Shown here in pieces: positions 41,596-50,654 of a stretch of DNA of 64,000 nt. The notes below the pieces were generated by a model. It had not been told where the DNA came from. It made no database searches and saw nothing but the letters and a program-made list of their open reading frames with translations. This DNA is from Escherichia phage phT4A. The first letter of the stretch is position 1, and each line of letters begins with the position of its first letter. The DNA is taken from the sequence record NC_055712.1. One strand, written 5' to 3'. A program made the position numbers and the translations under genes.

Positions 41596-42435
41596 TCAAC
41601 CCCAAGTGTCAGTTTTCGGTGCGTATGCTGCAACTTTAGCCACAATTTCCTTATCCAGTTCAGCTACAGATTTCTGAGGCTTACCACGGGCTTTAACTTT
41701 GATGTAGTTTGACTTAACAACAAACATCCCTTTGTTACTTGATTTCTTGATCTCGCTATCAACACCAACTTTGTTAAAGCTGATCCAAATGTCGCCGTCC
41801 ATATACTGTTTAAGAGAATCACCCATGTTCAGGATCTTCGCCATAGTAAGGGCCGCGCCTTCGTGGGTATCCATGAGAATTTCTTTAGGAACTACACGAT
41901 CGCGTTTCTGGTTCTGCTGCATAGCAATATGCACATCGTTCATAACCCATACGATATGTACGTTTTCTTTTTTGTATCCCAGCGTTTCGACATCACGTGC
42001 GATGCTTGCCAGCTTGCTCATGCCTTTTAACGTTACGTCAAAGATGAGGTTAGGTTTACGATCTTCTGGTGCTGCCATAATACCGGAATAAACACGGTTT
42101 TGGTTTTTGTTGGAAATGTTGAAAACGTCGGCGATCACATGATGGAGGGTAGATACGTTTTCTGGGTTTTTGAGGTTCATTGTTTTGACATCATGACCCG
42201 TTTGTTTCTTGATCTCTGCTGCGAGTTTATCGCTACCCATTACAAGTTTTTTCAGGGCGTCAACGTCCAGGGTAATACCTTCGATGCCTAGCAGTTTTTC
42301 CAGTGTGAATCCTTTACCGGAACCAGCACCGCCAGCCAGAATAACAACCTGACCGAACTTAGGATAAGCACGGCCCCCGAAGGTGATCAGCGCTTCGGTT
42401 AAGGTGCTTTCTGTGAATTGTTTAAATGACTTCAT
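41596..42435 (-). CDS. P-loop NMP-kinase-like protein
   Basis: 279 aa; ILAGGAGSGKGFT resembles the adenylate/NMP kinase P-loop GxPGxGKGT; function inferred from motif only. Confidence 0.4.
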   Translation of the reverse strand: MKSFKQFTESTLTEALITFGGRAYPKFGQVVILAGGAGSGKGFTLEKLLGIEGITLDVDALKKLVMGSDKLAAEIKKQTGHDVKTMNLKNPENVSTLHHVIADVFNISNKNQNRVYSGIMAAPEDRKPNLIFDVTLKGMSKLASIARDVETLGYKKENVHIVWVMNDVHIAMQQNQKRDRVVPKEILMDTHEGAALTMAKILNMGDSLKQYMDGDIWISFNKVGVDSEIKKSSNKGMFVVKSNYIKVKARGKPQKSVAELDKEIVAKVAAYAPKTDTWG

Positions 42436-43457: not shown

Positions 43458-43775
43458 ATGAAAACGATACATTGCAGAAATGAAAACGTTGTTTACTATC
43501 ACGGTTCGTGTACTGCTGCTGGTATTGAAAGCATGTTATTGCCTCCCTGTGATTCTGATACTCTGTCTGAAAAAGGCAGGAAGAAAAATTTAGACCGTGT
43601 TTTCTTTACCGCTGATATCGGGTTAGCTCGTATATACGCTGGAAGGGCCGCGCGTTCTATAGGTGGGGAACCTGTTCTGTACAGGGTTGTGTGTCCGGTT
43701 GATGTTGTATGCATGAACGAAGACAAAGGCGCGAGCGTTTACCATGCAGCATGGGCGTTTTGTGAGGAATTATGA
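43458..43775 (+). CDS. small ADP-ribosyltransferase-like protein (Arr-like candidate)
   Basis: 105 aa, strong GGGAGGA RBS; motif series YYHGS ... VFFTAD ... LYRVVCPVD resembles the HGT ... YFSA ... YxVEP pattern of Arr-type minimal ADP-ribosyltransferases; recalled similarity, not searched. Confidence 0.3.
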   Translation: MKTIHCRNENVVYYHGSCTAAGIESMLLPPCDSDTLSEKGRKKNLDRVFFTADIGLARIYAGRAARSIGGEPVLYRVVCPVDVVCMNEDKGASVYHAAWAFCEEL

Positions 43776-43948: not shown

Positions 43949-44271
43949 AACTATATCATGTGATCTACTCTGGTGTTTTAGGCATTGACAAACAAATGTT
44001 AGTTGATGTAATGTGTAAAAAACTCGATGAGCGAATTGGAACCCGATACAAAAATCATGTATCGGAAAGTATCTTCATCAACGTTGACCATCCAAATGAC
44101 ATGGAAGAAATGGTTAATACTCTTGATGATCAGCAGATCCCGTTTGTTGACAATTTCAACATGAGCGCTGGAGTGTATACGGTAGTAACTTTTGTTCTAA
44201 AAAATGTTGACAGCCGAAACGATAGCGTGTTGAATGTAGTTGCAAAAATCGATTCTACCAAAGGAAAATAA
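43945..44271 (+). CDS. hypothetical protein
   Basis: 108 aa; translationally coupled. Confidence 0.5.
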   Translation: MKLYHVIYSGVLGIDKQMLVDVMCKKLDERIGTRYKNHVSESIFINVDHPNDMEEMVNTLDDQQIPFVDNFNMSAGVYTVVTFVLKNVDSRNDSVLNVVAKIDSTKGK

Positions 44272-44272
44272 T

Positions 44273-44629
44273 ATGAAAATTGTACACCGTAGCATTTCCG
44301 AACTGTCTCAAGCTGAAAAAGTGCAAATTCATTTCAAATTCAATGATTTGCGTAAAGGTTATGCCGAAATTGCCCGTGAACATGGGTTAGATAACGGCGA
44401 TATTTACCAGGTAGTACAGGAAATTGAACGTATCCGCGCGTTCCGTTCTGCAAATCTCCCTGTTAAAAATGCAATGCGCCGCGAAGCGATCGAAATCCAT
44501 CGTAAGCGTGTGTACAATTTAGAACGTGCTAAACGTCCGATGAAGAAAGAAAAGAAACCTCGTCCGTTTAAACGTGAACATCTTAACACCTCTATGGCGC
44601 TGGCGTTTCAAGATGCGGGGATTATCTAA
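44273..44629 (+). CDS. hypothetical protein with basic C-terminus
   Basis: ATG 44273 with GGAAA RBS; 118 aa. Confidence 0.5.
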   Translation: MKIVHRSISELSQAEKVQIHFKFNDLRKGYAEIAREHGLDNGDIYQVVQEIERIRAFRSANLPVKNAMRREAIEIHRKRVYNLERAKRPMKKEKKPRPFKREHLNTSMALAFQDAGII

Positions 44630-45153
44630 TGCGTAAATCTGCGATGGATCGTTGGGCTAGTATTGCTACTTCAAACGTAAAACCAAATCAAGCCGCACCT
44701 GATGTAGAAGCGGTTCGTAAAGCAAAAGAACCTGAGATCGTGGCCCTTAGCCCTGAACTCATCGAGCATCGCCGTCGTGCGTCTGCTATTGAACTGGATC
44801 TGCGTATTGCGCGTTCATATAATCTCAAGCATGAACACGCCGCAAAGAACAACCATTCTTTTGACCTTACTCTGGAAGATTGGAAAGTGTTGATGACAAC
44901 TGAACGTTGTCAGTATTCCGGCAAGATGTTTAGCAATAAACCAGGTAGCCCATATGCCCGTACAATGGAACGTATTAATCCACGTCTGGGATATACACAA
45001 GAAAATACAATAGCGGTTATCAACGCCGCTAATGCCGAAAAATCACAGCTTGATGCATTCGTTAAGGGTGATGTCATTCTGGATGAAGTAAAAGTGAAGT
45101 TGCTGCGTAAAGCACTTTATCAAGTCGAAAAACGTGTGAAAATGAAAGGTTAA
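44629..45153 (+). CDS. hypothetical protein with degenerate HNH-like segment
   Basis: 174 aa; CQYSGK...MERINPRLGYTQENTIAVINAANAEKSQ resembles the HNH spacing but lacks the His/Cys ligands. Confidence 0.45.
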   Translation: MRKSAMDRWASIATSNVKPNQAAPDVEAVRKAKEPEIVALSPELIEHRRRASAIELDLRIARSYNLKHEHAAKNNHSFDLTLEDWKVLMTTERCQYSGKMFSNKPGSPYARTMERINPRLGYTQENTIAVINAANAEKSQLDAFVKGDVILDEVKVKLLRKALYQVEKRVKMKG

Positions 45154-45156
45154 ATT

Positions 45157-46176
45157 ATGTTTAAGAAATATTCTTCTCTGACTAACCATTATGAAGGTAA
45201 GTTCATCAATGGTGTAATTATGAACGGGCTTACTGGCGGTGTGTGGGTTGCACGTGAAAAGATCCACGGTGCTAACTTTAGTTTTATCACCGATGACGGT
45301 ATTACCGTTACCCCCGCAAAGCGTACTGATGTTGTTAAGCCAGCCGAAGATTTTTATGGCTGTTCAGCAGTAGTTGCAAAGTATTCCCCAGGGATCCGTA
45401 AGATGTGGGAAACCCTCAAAAAGACCGGAACTTATGATGATTTGGTTATTCAAGTCTACGGTGAATTTGCGGGGCGCGGTGTACAGAAAGATGTTGATTA
45501 CGGCGAAAAAGATTTCTATGTATTCGATATCCGTGTAAATGGTGAATTCCTTCCGGATAACCTGTGCTCGCTGATCTCTCGATCTCATGGCCTGAAAATG
45601 GCCCCGCTGTTGGGATATGGTACTTTTGAAGAGATCAAAGAACTGCCGATCACGTTTGAATCTGTTGTGAATAAAGCAAATAGCGGCATTGGTAGCGATA
45701 ATACAGTATATGGTGAATTCGTATATCCTATCATGGAAGTTGAAGAGGGCAACATTGCAGAAGGTTTTGTAATGAAACCTGTTTCACCTGCTTTTATGCC
45801 AAACGGTGAACGCGTTGCAATCAAATGCAAAACAACCAAATTCACTGAGAAGAAAGCGAAGAAAGCAACCCGCTTTAATGCTCCGGTTTCATTGTCAGAA
45901 AAAGACAAAAACCAACTCGATGAGTTTGTTTGTTACCTTACAGAGAACCGTGTGAAAAACGTTCTTTCGAAACTGGATCTGGCTTCGATCACTGCGAAAG
46001 ATTTTGGTCGCATTATGGGCTTAACTGTTCAGGATGCTATCGAAGAAATCAGCCGTAATCACGGGCCTTTCCTCGAACAGTTCGAAGACCCAGCAATGGC
46101 TAAGAAGCTGTTTGTAACCGAAGCCCAAAACATGATTCGCCCTGTATGGGGCAAAATCCTGAACCATGAATTTTAA
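45157..46176 (+). CDS. rnlB: RNA ligase 2 (RnlB)
   Basis: 339 aa; MFKKYSSL...GGVWVAREKIHGANFS (ligase motif I K-x-H-G), KDFGRIMGLTVQD; close to T4 Rnl2 (334 aa). Confidence 0.88.
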   Translation: MFKKYSSLTNHYEGKFINGVIMNGLTGGVWVAREKIHGANFSFITDDGITVTPAKRTDVVKPAEDFYGCSAVVAKYSPGIRKMWETLKKTGTYDDLVIQVYGEFAGRGVQKDVDYGEKDFYVFDIRVNGEFLPDNLCSLISRSHGLKMAPLLGYGTFEEIKELPITFESVVNKANSGIGSDNTVYGEFVYPIMEVEEGNIAEGFVMKPVSPAFMPNGERVAIKCKTTKFTEKKAKKATRFNAPVSLSEKDKNQLDEFVCYLTENRVKNVLSKLDLASITAKDFGRIMGLTVQDAIEEISRNHGPFLEQFEDPAMAKKLFVTEAQNMIRPVWGKILNHEF

Positions 46177-46747
46177 TCAGATTCTGGTTGATGCAAAAGC
46201 GGCTACCCTGATCGGTAGCCGTAAACCTCCTGAACGTATCGCAAACATTGCTGTTAAAATCGGACGTGCTTTGAACGAACGCGGGATCAGGGCTTATTCT
46301 GGCGGCGCTCCTGGTATGGATAGTCACTTTCTGTTTGACTATAGTCCGGATAACAGATGTATAATCCTTCCTGATAACGGGTTTAACGGCCTTTTCTCAA
46401 ACGGAAAGGATATCATCGACTTTCGAGATTTAAACACACAGAAAGCTGCTGACGAAGCCAGAAAGGTAGCAGGTAACTTCGATACACAGAATGAATACGT
46501 TCAAAGAAGGTATGCGCGAAACACGATTCAAGTTCTTCGTGAAAATCTTGACAATCCAACTGATTTTGTTTTATTTTGGGCGGAAGAACGTGAAGGATGT
46601 GTTAAAGGTGGAACCGCGATCGCTGTAAGATTGGCTAGGTTGTACAGGGTTCCATGTTTCAATCTCTTCAAAGAAAGTGTATTGAACGATGTGTGTGATA
46701 CGTTAGGGATCAATATCAAACCCCCAACGTTGGATTTTTTATGGTAA
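46166..46747 (+). CDS. DprA/SLOG-like Rossmann-fold protein
   Basis: 193 aa; GSRKPP ... YSGGAPGMDSHF ... CIILPDNG matches the DprA/Smf/SLOG motif pattern (GSR, SGGAxGxD). Confidence 0.45.
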   Translation: MNFNQILVDAKAATLIGSRKPPERIANIAVKIGRALNERGIRAYSGGAPGMDSHFLFDYSPDNRCIILPDNGFNGLFSNGKDIIDFRDLNTQKAADEARKVAGNFDTQNEYVQRRYARNTIQVLRENLDNPTDFVLFWAEEREGCVKGGTAIAVRLARLYRVPCFNLFKESVLNDVCDTLGINIKPPTLDFLW

Positions 46748-47259
46748 TTGAACATGCGCCCTTACTTCGTGAAACATACGAAAGATGGGCTGTTAATAAC
46801 GCAATAGGTGAAAATATGATTCATGTACGTAGTATCGGTGCTGACGGCGAAACTCCAGTAGAAGGCCGATCGCCCACTCTCGCAGAACGAGCAAGAGAAA
46901 TTATCAACGATCAGAATGCTAAGATGATCGAACATGCGCGGGATACAATCACAAAAGGTGTTCTGAAACACGCGACACAACAAAACCTTATCTATGATAT
47001 GAAGCACGATATCGGCTCTTGTCTGGGTATTGAATGTACTCGCTATGCATTCCAACGAGTTTCTGAATGGTTGGAAGAAGAAGGGCTAAAATTCGATACA
47101 GAAGAAAAACGCAACGCCGCTAAGATCACAAATTCTCTGGCTAGTAAGTACAATCAAACGTATAGAAACCAGGAAGAACGTGAAGTGTTCGGTTTCAAAA
47201 TTCCTGAAAGGAAAACAGATCGCCGTGTAAGTGAATTCACTTTTTACATTAGTTGGTAA
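46741..47259 (+). CDS. hypothetical protein
   Basis: 172 aa. Confidence 0.5.
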   Translation: MVIEHAPLLRETYERWAVNNAIGENMIHVRSIGADGETPVEGRSPTLAERAREIINDQNAKMIEHARDTITKGVLKHATQQNLIYDMKHDIGSCLGIECTRYAFQRVSEWLEEEGLKFDTEEKRNAAKITNSLASKYNQTYRNQEEREVFGFKIPERKTDRRVSEFTFYISW

Positions 47260-47266
47260 AAAGGTG

Positions 47267-47295
47267 TTGACGGGGGTTGGTTATAGTAGTATTCT
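47267..47295 (+). promoter_or_regulatory. sigma70-type promoter TTGACG-17-TATTCT
   Basis: Intergenic, upstream of the 47337 gene. Confidence 0.35.
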
Positions 47296-47336
47296 AACTC
47301 CCGTAGACAAGACACTAACTCAGAAGGATAAACATC

Positions 47337-47597
47337 ATGGAAATCGTAATGAAAGCAACTTATGCTGGATACTGCCTGGAAGCAAAAGGTGTTGCTAACA
47401 ATGGTAAAGGCTTACGGGCCAATGTTGAAGCAATGCTGGATGAATTACATGCAATGTACGAATATGACAACGTAGCGGGTAGTGTTCTTATCCAGGCGTT
47501 GGAAGTCGATGGTGTTGATTGTGCTGGTTGGTGGGATGCTTACATTGACTACAACGATAACCGGGTTTACCTGTTGAGCAACAAAGATTATTTCTAA
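47337..47597 (+). CDS. hypothetical protein
   Basis: 86 aa; AAGGA RBS. Confidence 0.5.
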   Translation: MEIVMKATYAGYCLEAKGVANNGKGLRANVEAMLDELHAMYEYDNVAGSVLIQALEVDGVDCAGWWDAYIDYNDNRVYLLSNKDYF

Positions 47598-47606
47598 GGA
47601 ACCATT

Positions 47607-48056
47607 ATGAGCGATGAAGCTGAGGCTTTAGAAGATTGGGCTGATTTTGATGACGAAGAAGACGGTGAATATTTCTGCGTTAATCGTGGTGCTTATAAAG
47701 ACCGTTTAGAACTCCGTAAACTTTTATCGGGTTCCTCTCAAATATCAGGATCCAAACGAAAAAGTAGTAAACAAAAAGTTCAGTATAGTGATGGTTCTGT
47801 ACGTGATGAAACTGTTGTTGCTGAATTCCGTGGTCGGGTTATCACAAAAGAAAGACAAATTGATGTAAAGAACTTGTATGAAGTGGCTAAGGCTGCTAAA
47901 ATAGGTTCTGTGATTGTTTGCCCTGTGTGCAAAGAAAAACACACAAAGACAACGTATCACAAAGTTTTCTGTTCGAATGGCAGAAAAACCAGTAAGGATT
48001 GTAAGTCTAAATATCACAATACAATCCATCCCGAACGACTGGATCGGGTATTTTAA
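47607..48056 (+). CDS. hypothetical protein with acidic N-terminus and C-terminal Cys-rich zinc-ribbon-like region
   Basis: 149 aa; CPVCKEKH...CSNGRKTSKDCKSKYH. Confidence 0.5.
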   Translation: MSDEAEALEDWADFDDEEDGEYFCVNRGAYKDRLELRKLLSGSSQISGSKRKSSKQKVQYSDGSVRDETVVAEFRGRVITKERQIDVKNLYEVAKAAKIGSVIVCPVCKEKHTKTTYHKVFCSNGRKTSKDCKSKYHNTIHPERLDRVF

Positions 48057-48083
48057 AATAAACCTAAAACGTGGAGTACGTTT

Positions 48084-49517
48084 ATGAACAACAAAACTTT
48101 CGAAGAACTGAACAGCATCATCACTTCCGTAGATTCCTATAAGGTTTCTCACTGGTCGCAATATCCAACTGGCTCCGAAGAGGCGCTGTTTTATATTGAA
48201 TCTCGTGGTGGTAAATTTGATCAAGTAGTTACGGCTGGCTGTAACCGCCTTGCGCAAATCCTATCACGTCCGGTGACTATGGAAAACGTAGATTTTGCTA
48301 ATCGGTTGTACAAAATGCACTTTGGGCGCGAAATCTTCAACTACAAAGGTTGGAAAGAAATTGCAGAACTGGGTTACATCCCTCTTGAATTCAGAGCGAT
48401 TCCGGAAGGAACCCCAGTAGCGGTTAAAAATCCGGTTGCAACTTTCCATGCTGGGAAAAATGCGCTGTGGTTAGCAGGACACGTAGAAACCCTGGCGATC
48501 AGGGGAGTATGGTTCCCTTCAACCGTAGCAACTCTATCCCGCGAATGTAAAAAAGTGTTGAAGAAATATCTCAAGAAAACCTCCGATCTCGAAGGTGAAG
48601 CATTTGATATGGTATTACGTACCCGTTTGCATGACTTCGGCGCACGTGGAACCTCTTCTGCTGAATCTGCTGGTATTGGTGGCCTTGCTCATCTGTATAA
48701 CTTCCTCGGTACTGATACCGTAGAAGCGCTGATTATGGCTATCTCTCTGTTTGAAGATTGTCAGAAAGCGTTTGATGATGGTGAAATGGCGGCTGGTATT
48801 TCAATTCCTGCTCGCGAACATTCCACTACCGTTTCTTACGGCAAAGAAAACGAAGACCTTGCATACAAAAACAGTATTGAGATCTTCGGTGAAGGGATGT
48901 ATGCATGTGTGTATGATTCCTGGGATTTTAAAGCGGCGGTTCGCCGTATCGCAGAATATAAAGATTCTATTCTTTCTAAGGGCGGTACTCTGGTAGTTCG
49001 TCCGGATTCTGGCGATATGGTAGACAATATCATGTACGCTCTTGAAGAACTGGGCCGTATCTTTGGCTATACAGTGAACTCAAAAGGGTATAAAGTACTA
49101 CACCCAGCAGTAAGGATCATTCAAGGCGATGAAATTCATGGCCCTGAAACAATCAATCGGGTGTTGAACTGGATGGAGTCTAACCGTTGGGCGTCTGAAA
49201 ACATCGCGTTTGGTATGGGCGGCGGATTGCTTCAAGAAGTTACCCGCGACACTCAAAAATATGCGATGAAAATGTGCGCAATCAAAATTAACGGTGTGTG
49301 GACTGGTGTGTATAAATGTCCAAAAGGCGCTGAATGGAAAAAGAGTAAAAAAGGGTTGTTAATGACTATCACTGATGGTGTTAACTTTAAAACCATTGAT
49401 ACTCTGGAACAGAAAGTGCCGGAAGGCTGGAAAGATGCTATGATCACATACTATGTCAACGGAAAGATTACTGCCCGTGACACTTTAGAGGAAATTAGGA
49501 ACCGTGCCGGGATTTAG
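48084..49517 (+). CDS. nadV: nicotinamide phosphoribosyltransferase (NadV / NAMPT family)
   Basis: 477 aa; NAMPT-type motifs (RLHDFGARGTSSAESAGIGGLAHL, GMGGGLLQ). Confidence 0.8.
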   Translation: MNNKTFEELNSIITSVDSYKVSHWSQYPTGSEEALFYIESRGGKFDQVVTAGCNRLAQILSRPVTMENVDFANRLYKMHFGREIFNYKGWKEIAELGYIPLEFRAIPEGTPVAVKNPVATFHAGKNALWLAGHVETLAIRGVWFPSTVATLSRECKKVLKKYLKKTSDLEGEAFDMVLRTRLHDFGARGTSSAESAGIGGLAHLYNFLGTDTVEALIMAISLFEDCQKAFDDGEMAAGISIPAREHSTTVSYGKENEDLAYKNSIEIFGEGMYACVYDSWDFKAAVRRIAEYKDSILSKGGTLVVRPDSGDMVDNIMYALEELGRIFGYTVNSKGYKVLHPAVRIIQGDEIHGPETINRVLNWMESNRWASENIAFGMGGGLLQEVTRDTQKYAMKMCAIKINGVWTGVYKCPKGAEWKKSKKGLLMTITDGVNFKTIDTLEQKVPEGWKDAMITYYVNGKITARDTLEEIRNRAGI

Positions 49518-49806
49518 TATCCGCAAAAACGACAAAGGAACCGTGATTTTCTATGACAACATGCCCCTTGTAGCTCGCAAGGGGCTTTTTGCTAAAATCG
49601 CTGGGTATTCCTTTAAACTGGAAGAAGTCAACGACGAAACACTAAAAGAGATCGTAAGAATTGCCTTACAGTTAAGAGGTAAGAAAGACGAACAAAAAGC
49701 TATTGACATGATCAATAAATTGGGTGAAACTCAATGCTTCATAGTGAATCGTGGTTACAAGTACGATACCATTGCAAAATTTGAAAAAGGGCTTTGTGAA
49801 TTATGA
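49504..49806 (+). CDS. hypothetical protein
   Basis: 100 aa; GTG start with AGGAA RBS, overlaps nadV end. Confidence 0.4.
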   Translation: MPGFSIRKNDKGTVIFYDNMPLVARKGLFAKIAGYSFKLEEVNDETLKEIVRIALQLRGKKDEQKAIDMINKLGETQCFIVNRGYKYDTIAKFEKGLCEL

Positions 49807-50654
49807 GTTATTATGGTGTGATCCCATACACAGGAAACAAGCAAAAGCTACTTCCTGAACTGTTCAAATTATTTCCAGACAGAAACAGCTATATGCGATT
49901 CATCGACTGTTTTTGTGGTGGTTTGAGTGTGTCGCTAAACGTCCCTAAACCCGTTCTAAGCAACGATTACGATCGGACGTTGATTGATATGTATAAGCGC
50001 CTTCAAATGCTTCCTGACCTCTCTCCTGTGCGAGAATTGATTAAACAGCATGGTCTGGGTAAGAACGAGAAAGAAGCGTATCTCACATTTCGTGATGCGT
50101 ATAATAAGAACAAGGATCCTCTATGGCTCTACGTTCTGATCCTTCATTCGTTTAGTAATGTTAATCGAACCAACGATAAAGGCGATTTTAACGCCAATTT
50201 TGGTTGTAGAACGTTGAATGATTCTACCGTTAAACGGTTTGAACACTTCAAAAATAATGTTCGGGGGATTGAATTCTCTAGCGCATCGTTTAAGGATCTT
50301 GATATCTGTTTGAATGATTTTGTGTACTGCGATCCGCCGTACCTGATCACTGATGCAGTTTATAACAAGTTCTGGAACGAAGAACGCGAGCATGAATTAT
50401 ATGATTTTCTCGATAATTTAAACTCTGATGGTATCAAGTTTGGTTTATCAAACGTGACACATCATGCAGGAAAGCAAAATGATATCCTGATCGAGTGGAT
50501 GCAAAAATATAATGTGCATAACCTCGATAAAAAGTATCTGTTAGGCCAGCATACTGATTCTTACGAACAAAATAAAACGCAAGAAGTCTACGTGTGCAAC
50601 TACCAGAAACGCGACGTAAATACATACCCTGAAACACTGGATGACTTAATGTAA
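49803..50654 (+). CDS. dam: DNA adenine methyltransferase (Dam, GATC-specific)
   Basis: 283 aa; extensive similarity to T4 Dam (YTGNKQKLLPEL, FCGGLSVSLNV, DPPY motif VYCDPPYLIT). Confidence 0.9.
   Translation: MSYYGVIPYTGNKQKLLPELFKLFPDRNSYMRFIDCFCGGLSVSLNVPKPVLSNDYDRTLIDMYKRLQMLPDLSPVRELIKQHGLGKNEKEAYLTFRDAYNKNKDPLWLYVLILHSFSNVNRTNDKGDFNANFGCRTLNDSTVKRFEHFKNNVRGIEFSSASFKDLDICLNDFVYCDPPYLITDAVYNKFWNEEREHELYDFLDNLNSDGIKFGLSNVTHHAGKQNDILIEWMQKYNVHNLDKKYLLGQHTDSYEQNKTQEVYVCNYQKRDVNTYPETLDDLM

Follow-up and report, generated by a model that had tools for sequence, protein, structure and literature searches.

The gene examined here lies at positions 46166..46747 (+ strand) of a 64,000-nucleotide stretch of Escherichia phage phT4A DNA (NC_055712.1), hereafter the window. 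phT4A is a T4-like phage of the Slopekvirus group. It begins with ATG and encodes a single-domain, DprA-like SLOG protein of 193 residues. Directly upstream is the gene for RNA ligase 2 (rnlB, 45157..46176, + strand), identified by Pfam matches to RNA_ligase (5.3e-19) and T4_Rnl2_C (7.1e-15), the stop of which overlaps the SLOG gene by 11 nt. The GSR and SGGAxGxD motifs from which the original prediction assigned the product to the DprA/SLOG family are present as G17-S18-R19 and S45-G-G-A-P-G-M-D52, and the assignment itself was borne out by profile searches and fold comparison. Residues 11-188 matched positions 4-187 of the 191 in PHROG 768, 'DprA-like DNA recombination-mediator protein' (E 1.5e-60). 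The match to Pfam DprA (PF02481) was limited to residues 10-54 (E 1.6e-4) and scored 21.4 bits against a cut-off of 29.6, and TIGR00732 scored 18.7 bits against a cut-off of 191.15. In PADLOC the protein resembled the DprA-like antitoxins ShosA and PsyrA weakly and over part of its length (residues 4-53; for ShosA 9-53). No match was obtained to Pfam LOG (PF03641) or YspA/DUF2493 (PF10686) at E up to 10, nor to DUF2829 in the Pfam scan. Searching the PDB with the single sequence gave nothing significant; the family profile matched Helicobacter pylori DprA (PDB 4LJK/4LJR), which was the top match by fold and by profile. The structure model shows a three-layer alpha/beta fold with SLOG topology, in agreement with solved SLOG proteins, and has a single compact domain followed by a short tail. 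The full multi-domain architecture of DprA, which the original prediction had named as evidence against itself, was not found, as neither a SAM domain nor a C-terminal DNA-binding domain is present in the model. Thus, the fold is securely that of the SLOG superfamily (Rossmann-type, TIR-DrHyd-SLOG class), in its DprA-like branch; the data do not support placing the protein within DprA proper.

The family is large, patchy and accessory rather than core. Relatives were detected by tblastn in 1,210 phage records (Klebsiella, Pseudomonas, Escherichia, Aeromonas, Vibrio, Acinetobacter and others), and an exhaustive profile search yielded 6,430 cluster representatives at 50% identity, mostly stand-alone proteins of 165-200 residues. 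More than 100 near-identical genomes already carry an annotation of the gene. One homologue (L014 5001..5584; IMG/VR UViG_638276010, 180,500 bp) is frameshifted after approximately residue 35, separating GSR from the rest of the protein, which reflects either a sequencing error or a gene that is dispensable. Two public proteins of 143-144 residues (P0019 and P0021) are likewise short at the N-terminus.

Conservation of the putative binding pocket was computed over 191 homologous domain instances. Residues G17, S18, R19, P22, S45, G46, A48, G50, D52, P69, R118, N119, Q122, G148, G149, T150, A153 and N166 were near-invariant. The structure of H. pylori DprA with single-stranded DNA (ssDNA) revealed two motifs, G-S/T/A-R (Arg52) and F/L/Y-x-x-R-N/D (Phe140, Arg143 and Asn144), and Gly164 also touches the inserted base (PMC3950713). 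The first motif corresponds to G17-S18-R19 (46214..46222, + strand), which is 94-98% conserved and aligns with 'GTR' of the H. pylori protein. The glycine-rich loop following strand 2 (S45 to D52; 46298..46321, + strand) aligns with 'SGGALGVD', with S45, G46, A48, G50 and D52 conserved at 95-99%. The equivalent of the second motif is R115-Y-A-R118-N119-T-I-Q122 (46508..46531, + strand), in which R118 is 99%, N119 97% and Q122 97% conserved; the hydrophobic position three residues before R118 is Leu or Phe in 146 of the 191 instances and is occupied by R115 in the clade of phT4A, with Y116 adjacent. The loop K147-G-G-T150-A-I-A153 (46604..46624, + strand; G148, G149 and T150 98-99% conserved) aligns with 'KSGS' of H. 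pylori DprA and corresponds to PGGxGTxxE of LOG enzymes without the Glu. In 185 of 191 instances Ala occupies the position of that catalytic residue, three after T150, and the neighboring position is acidic (Glu) in one case only. Since the GSR, SGGAxGxD, R-N and GGT elements are conserved at 94-99%, they are a family signature and not a product of chance. At the level of sequence, the phage family retains both ssDNA motifs of DprA and the glycine loop, the phT4A protein itself keeping the second motif in its R118-N119 part. The pocket appears to resemble a DprA-type binding site rather than a LOG-type hydrolytic site, based on retention of the DprA motifs and loss of the LOG Glu.

The protein ends with IKPPTLDFLW, the last eight residues of which (P-P-T-L-D-F-L-W; 46721..46744, + strand) resemble the peptides that bind the sliding clamp, gp45. 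In T4, hydrophobic/acidic C-termini are interchangeable epitopes that bind gp45 (PMC2988020), and by sequence resemblance the tail is of the same short hydrophobic/acidic C-terminal type as those of the gp45 ligands gp43, gp55 and gp33. Klebsiella phage Roth22, 99.5% identical to phT4A over bases 45000-49600 (∼99% for phage Matisse), carries the tails FPTLEDFL on gp55, TTLDGFM on gp33 and SLNDLFGDW on gp43. The SLOG tail varies in step with the clamp-ligand tails of the same phage. In phage CC31 the SLOG protein ends with APTFDIFAL, gp43 with SLDNMFDF and gp55 with NLDFLYEADD, and in phage W115 the respective ends are SDLSWLDI, SLTDLFDI and PSLDQFYEIEN. The clamp-like tail is absent from SLOG proteins outside T4-like phages and also from that of the T4-like Acinetobacter phage Meroveus. 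The predicted local distance difference test score (pLDDT) of the model drops to 81 and then to 60 along the tail, as expected of a flexible peptide. The DNA adenine methyltransferase of phT4A (49803..50654, + strand) ends in YPETLDDLM, which follows the same hydrophobic/acidic pattern, and this enzyme may also ride the sliding clamp; its homologue in W115 lacks such a tail. A scan of Roth22 for the pattern also detected a 110-residue hypothetical protein encoded after nrdB (43964..44296 of the Roth22 sequence, + strand, outside the window) that ends in KKRSLDFLDI.

The genomic context was compared across 80 viral loci and a number of annotated phage regions, the loci being sorted into 48 groups (SLOG identity ≥70%). 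Ten groups have an RNA ligase (PF09414) within 5 kb of the SLOG gene. Seven of these are T4-like: in six of them Rnl2 immediately precedes SLOG, its stop codon abutting or overlapping the SLOG start even where SLOG identity has fallen to 33-40% (as in CC31), and in the seventh it lies ∼1 kb upstream. The other three groups are unrelated and encode a ligase of different architecture (PHA02142 OB-fold plus RNA_ligase) 0.4-3 kb from the SLOG gene. In two T5-like genera the SLOG gene is situated inside a split locus for a NAD-dependent DNA ligase, in two arrangements (JSF10 and M4H10_20). The order inh-hoc-...-rnlB-SLOG is common to T4-like phages, and the SLOG gene is present without rnlB in Krischvirus W115. 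Transfer of the rnlB-SLOG pair as a unit between genera was considered at first, but inherited gene order explains the T4-like cases equally well. Genes connected with ADP-ribose also recur. NADAR adjoins SLOG in two loci (L076 and L078), Macro lies 1.5-2.8 kb away in three groups, DUF4326 is near or fused to SLOG in four groups, and NadV, Macro and SLOG follow in that order within 3 kb in the unrelated Pseudomonas Pakpunavirus SCUT-S2. The link between NadV and SLOG is therefore not unique to phT4A, nor is it general. Helicases of the SF1B/Dda type were recurrent near SLOG. Unbiased clustering of the neighbors returned mainly T4 structural genes and no universal SLOG partner.

The multi-domain representatives that were scanned comprised five fusions with NADAR, five with DUF4326 and one with MazG, all of which retain the SLOG motifs. 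Giant phage proteins of 1,269-1,581 residues also contain this SLOG domain (L063 4263..9008, L049 2268..6077, P0044 and P0045). In two of them, P0044 and P0045, it is accompanied by SLOG domains of the YspA and 'cluster4' types and by NADAR at the C-terminus, and PF10686 matches another SLOG copy there. NADAR is a hydrolase shown experimentally to strip ADP-ribose from guanine in ssDNA (PMC11543638), and phage NADARs cleanse phage DNA, thereby defeating DarTG1 (PMC11825919). Fusion of a DprA-like ssDNA-binding module to NADAR as a targeting domain would make mechanistic sense.

The SLOG gene of phT4A is followed by an open reading frame (ORF) of 172 codons (46741..47259, + strand) whose start overlaps it by 7 nt. 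This ORF (phrog_7671, function unassigned) follows SLOG in every Slopekvirus-like locus, has few homologues and had no family match in the Pfam scan. The original prediction was correct in placing the SLOG gene beside RNA ligase 2, but not two genes from NadV. NadV (nicotinamide phosphoribosyltransferase; 48084..49517, + strand), identified by Pfam matches to NAPRTase (6.9e-41) and NAMPT_N (2.6e-22), follows on the same strand as the fourth gene after SLOG, the 172-codon ORF and two others (47337..47597 and 47607..48056) lying between. Neither these three ORFs nor the other ORFs of the cluster gave an informative Pfam or PHROG match. A strong terminator-like hairpin with a 9-bp stem, six G-C pairs and a following T run is located after NadV (49563..49585, + strand), and a scan of the interval from SLOG to NadV detected no terminator-like site on the + strand; the hairpin possibly marks the end of a transcription unit that holds rnlB, SLOG and NadV. 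No claim is made for promoters, since promoter-like sites were no more common than in shuffled sequence (13 versus 16.9).

The same accessory cluster contains, 2.4 kb upstream of the SLOG gene, a gene of the 'p0068-like' family (43458..43775, + strand) encoding a 105-residue protein with the ADP-ribosyltransferase fold. NADAR, Macro, DUF4326 and MazG genes were not found within the window. Besides the absence of NADAR and Macro, no nicotinamide mononucleotide adenylyltransferase or Nudix gene was seen in the window to accompany NadV, and the second enzyme of the known phage route for salvage of nicotinamide adenine dinucleotide (NAD) may be encoded elsewhere in the genome or supplied by the host. 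Directly upstream of rnlB is a gene annotated 'decoy of host sigma70' (phrog_4592; 44629..45153, + strand) that also matches PHROGs for HNH endonuclease and endonuclease VII (E 2e-20 to 6e-7) and may be derived from a nuclease fold. Further upstream, on the - strand, a 279-codon ORF (41596..42435; phrog_5268) matches the Zeta-toxin P-loop kinase family (Pfam PF06414, E 2.8e-7); its counterpart in Roth22 adjoins a gene annotated 'anti-RM protein dam3'.

From the fold, the conserved motifs, the missing LOG Glu, the neighborhoods, the fusions and the tail resemblance, we infer binding of nucleic acid and of the clamp, cooperation with ligases and a benefit in counter-defence. The explanation tentatively favored is that the protein is non-catalytic and uses a DprA-type pocket for recognition of a nucleotide in single-stranded or damaged nucleic acid, being tethered to the clamp in T4-like phages and acting alongside enzymes that seal ends or reverse lesions. 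The pocket formed by G17-S18-R19, R118-N119 and G148-G149-T150 would hold the nucleotide without cleavage, the likeliest ligand being an unpaired or damaged base of ssDNA or RNA as for H. pylori DprA. Attachment to gp45 at forks and nicks would be provided, in T4-like phages, by the tail PPTLDFLW, and there the protein could help the sealing and lesion-reversing enzymes as an accessory factor for recognition or protection. The partner would be RNA ligase 2 in phT4A, taken here as co-transcribed, and a DNA ligase, NADAR domain, Macro domain or DUF4326 in other phages. The expected benefit is repair or protection of phage nucleic acid harmed by host defences through nicking or ADP-ribosylation. 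A more specific version, in which a clamp-riding sensor of single-stranded or damaged bases passes defence-made lesions (nicks, ADP-ribosylated bases and RNA-DNA junctions) to ligases and to NADAR, Macro and DUF4326 enzymes, is rather unlikely. Two caveats apply to the favored explanation. Inherited order accounts for part of the adjacency of rnlB and SLOG within T4-like phages, and since the shared order may be inherited, the weight of the ligase link rests on the cases outside that group. The tail pattern matched 7 of 151 predicted Roth22 genes versus 0.3 in shuffled tails, and the three known clamp ligands were all among the matches, as were the SLOG protein and the Dam methyltransferase; however, the pattern was written after the tails had been seen, and the enrichment is therefore supportive rather than a clean test.

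The original prediction suggested that the gene may belong to an anti-defence island aimed at NAD-depleting or nucleotide-signalling immunity, and drew an analogy with Thoeris sponges of the DUF2493 type. Counter-defence through NAD or ADP-ribose chemistry remains plausible in light of the NADAR and DUF4326 fusions and the NadV-Macro-SLOG arrangement. The analogy with Thoeris sponges is wrong, as two DUF numbers were mixed up: Tad2 is an 89-residue DUF2829 protein, neither DUF2493 nor SLOG. The main rival explanation is of this kind and follows the prediction published for viral SLOG domains (PMC9503650): the protein would bind or degrade soluble, NAD-derived ADP-ribose derivatives (cyclic ADP-ribose isomers, ADP-ribose cyclic phosphate or ADP-ribose 1''-phosphate), either sequestering them or cleaving the ribosyl-adenine bond, with the result that Thoeris-like signalling is blunted or by-products of NAD-dependent RNA repair are cleared. 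The NAD-themed neighbors fit, including the ADP-ribosyltransferase-fold gene, yet the catalytic Glu of LOG-type N-glycosidases is absent, the closest proteins by sequence and fold are the ssDNA binders DprA and ShosA and not ThsA, and neither a clamp-like tail nor ligase and helicase neighbors would be expected of a sponge. Moreover, ADP-ribosylated DNA is now an established substrate of the NADAR and Macro partners, the literature search returned no description of a SLOG sponge, and degradation of such signals is reported for another family, proteins with the RyR domain. The soluble-ligand explanation is possible but doubtful. A nucleic-acid role is favored over it based on the DprA ssDNA motifs, the ligase neighbors, the NADAR fusions and the clamp-like tail, and the sequence and neighbors together suggest work on phage DNA or RNA with ligases rather than soaking up of immune signals. 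A LOG-like phosphoribohydrolase that converts adenosine monophosphate or a modified nucleotide to base and ribose 5-phosphate, as proposed for the anti-Avs3 protein ORF83, is very improbable given the Ala that replaces the Glu of PGGxGTxxE in nearly all instances, the lack of any Pfam LOG match and the Arg-to-Thr spacing of 32 residues versus 23 in ORF83, the latter compared by description only.

The product name in GenBank implies a true recombination mediator, a dimer bound to ssDNA that loads UvsX or host RecA. That DprA is the best match by fold and by profile, that the ssDNA motifs are conserved, and that ShosA, also DprA-like, binds both ssDNA and RecA all agree with this role. Nonetheless it is improbable, since the Pfam and TIGR00732 scores fall below threshold with a match confined to residues 10-54, the protein is a single domain devoid of SAM and C-terminal domains, and near-identical Roth22 already encodes UvsY, the canonical T4 mediator, as well as UvsX; the family is also patchy and accessory in its distribution. 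The partial matches to ShosA and PsyrA would alternatively accommodate an antitoxin mimic that replaces the unstable antitoxin after host shut-off and neutralizes abortive infection by ShosTA/PsyrTA-type systems. This is scarcely to be expected, as the matches are confined to the strand-helix-strand and glycine-loop region (residues 4-53), the SAM domain needed for ShosA stability is absent, and the family extends far beyond the hosts of those systems.

The literature search returned no experimental study of a phage SLOG protein, although the family is already catalogued and has been discussed computationally; as far as was found, the ligase association, the DprA ssDNA motifs with the missing LOG Glu, and the clamp-like tail are new leads. 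The family comprises more than 6,000 clusters at 50% identity in some 1,200 sequenced phages, and the 'recombination mediator' label is carried in public records on weak grounds. If the protein is a clamp-bound factor for nucleic-acid recognition, acting together with ligases and de-ADP-ribosylases, it would be a missing targeting component in phage repair of defence-inflicted damage, with R19, R118 and the C-terminal tail as testable targets. If it rides the clamp as a sensor, it would represent an unrecognized accessory class in phage counter-defence and repair, and could explain why the inhibitors recovered against the Avs3 nuclease system include a DprA-like protein as well as a ligase. 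If instead it binds a NAD-derived signal, it would be the first anti-signalling protein with the SLOG fold. Either way, a softer annotation, 'DprA-like SLOG domain protein', should be adopted.

Compared with known systems, the phage protein is closest to the DprA/Smf domain of H. pylori, from which it differs by scores below the curated cut-offs, the presence of one domain only, an extra segment (approximately residues 70-110) and some 10 extra residues before the GGT loop. T4-like members add the clamp-like tail, and UvsY is already present in Roth22. ShosA of the ShosTA defence system (PDB 8ZVA) is a DprA-like antitoxin that binds ssDNA and RecA (PMC12961424). It is bacterial, has an N-terminal SAM domain and is partnered by a phosphoribosyltransferase toxin, whereas the phage match is limited to residues 9-53, the phage protein has no SAM domain and its neighborhood contains no ShosT-type gene. 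LOG phosphoribohydrolases (PF03641) depend on the catalytic Glu of PGGxGTxxE, which is Ala in the phage protein, and the LOG profile does not match. Tad2 and the phage protein are both small phage proteins, but Tad2 is unrelated to SLOG/DUF2493; DUF2493 is found as a domain fused to an ICP1 helicase. The anti-Avs3 proteins of Gao et al. 2022 are, according to the EVADES preprint, the DNA-ligase-like ORF55 and ORF83, the latter annotated as DprA/Smf and described there as having a SLOG fold, an R-N plus G-G-T-type pocket and DUF4326-fused relatives. As an anti-Avs3 pair, ORF55 and ORF83 parallel the pairing of ligase and SLOG found here, in a comparison by description only. As described there, ORF83 differs in its Arg-to-Thr spacing and in an Asp two residues after the Thr (T, Q or I here), and its tie to the phage family is a lead only. 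The viral SLOG proteins analyzed by Iyer et al. 2022 are fused to Macro, NADAR and DUF4326 and sporadically to helicase, HNH and exonuclease domains, and were predicted, without experiments, to sense or N-glycosidically cleave ADP-ribose derivatives (PMC9503650). The stand-alone phage SLOG, its relatives fused to NADAR or DUF4326 and the Macro and NadV neighbors are in agreement with that survey. In contrast, Iyer et al. placed most viral SLOGs in a YpsA-like clade, whereas the closest family here is DprA and the LOG-type Glu is absent, and where they predicted soluble ligands, the ligase neighbors and clamp-like tail described here point to nucleic acid.

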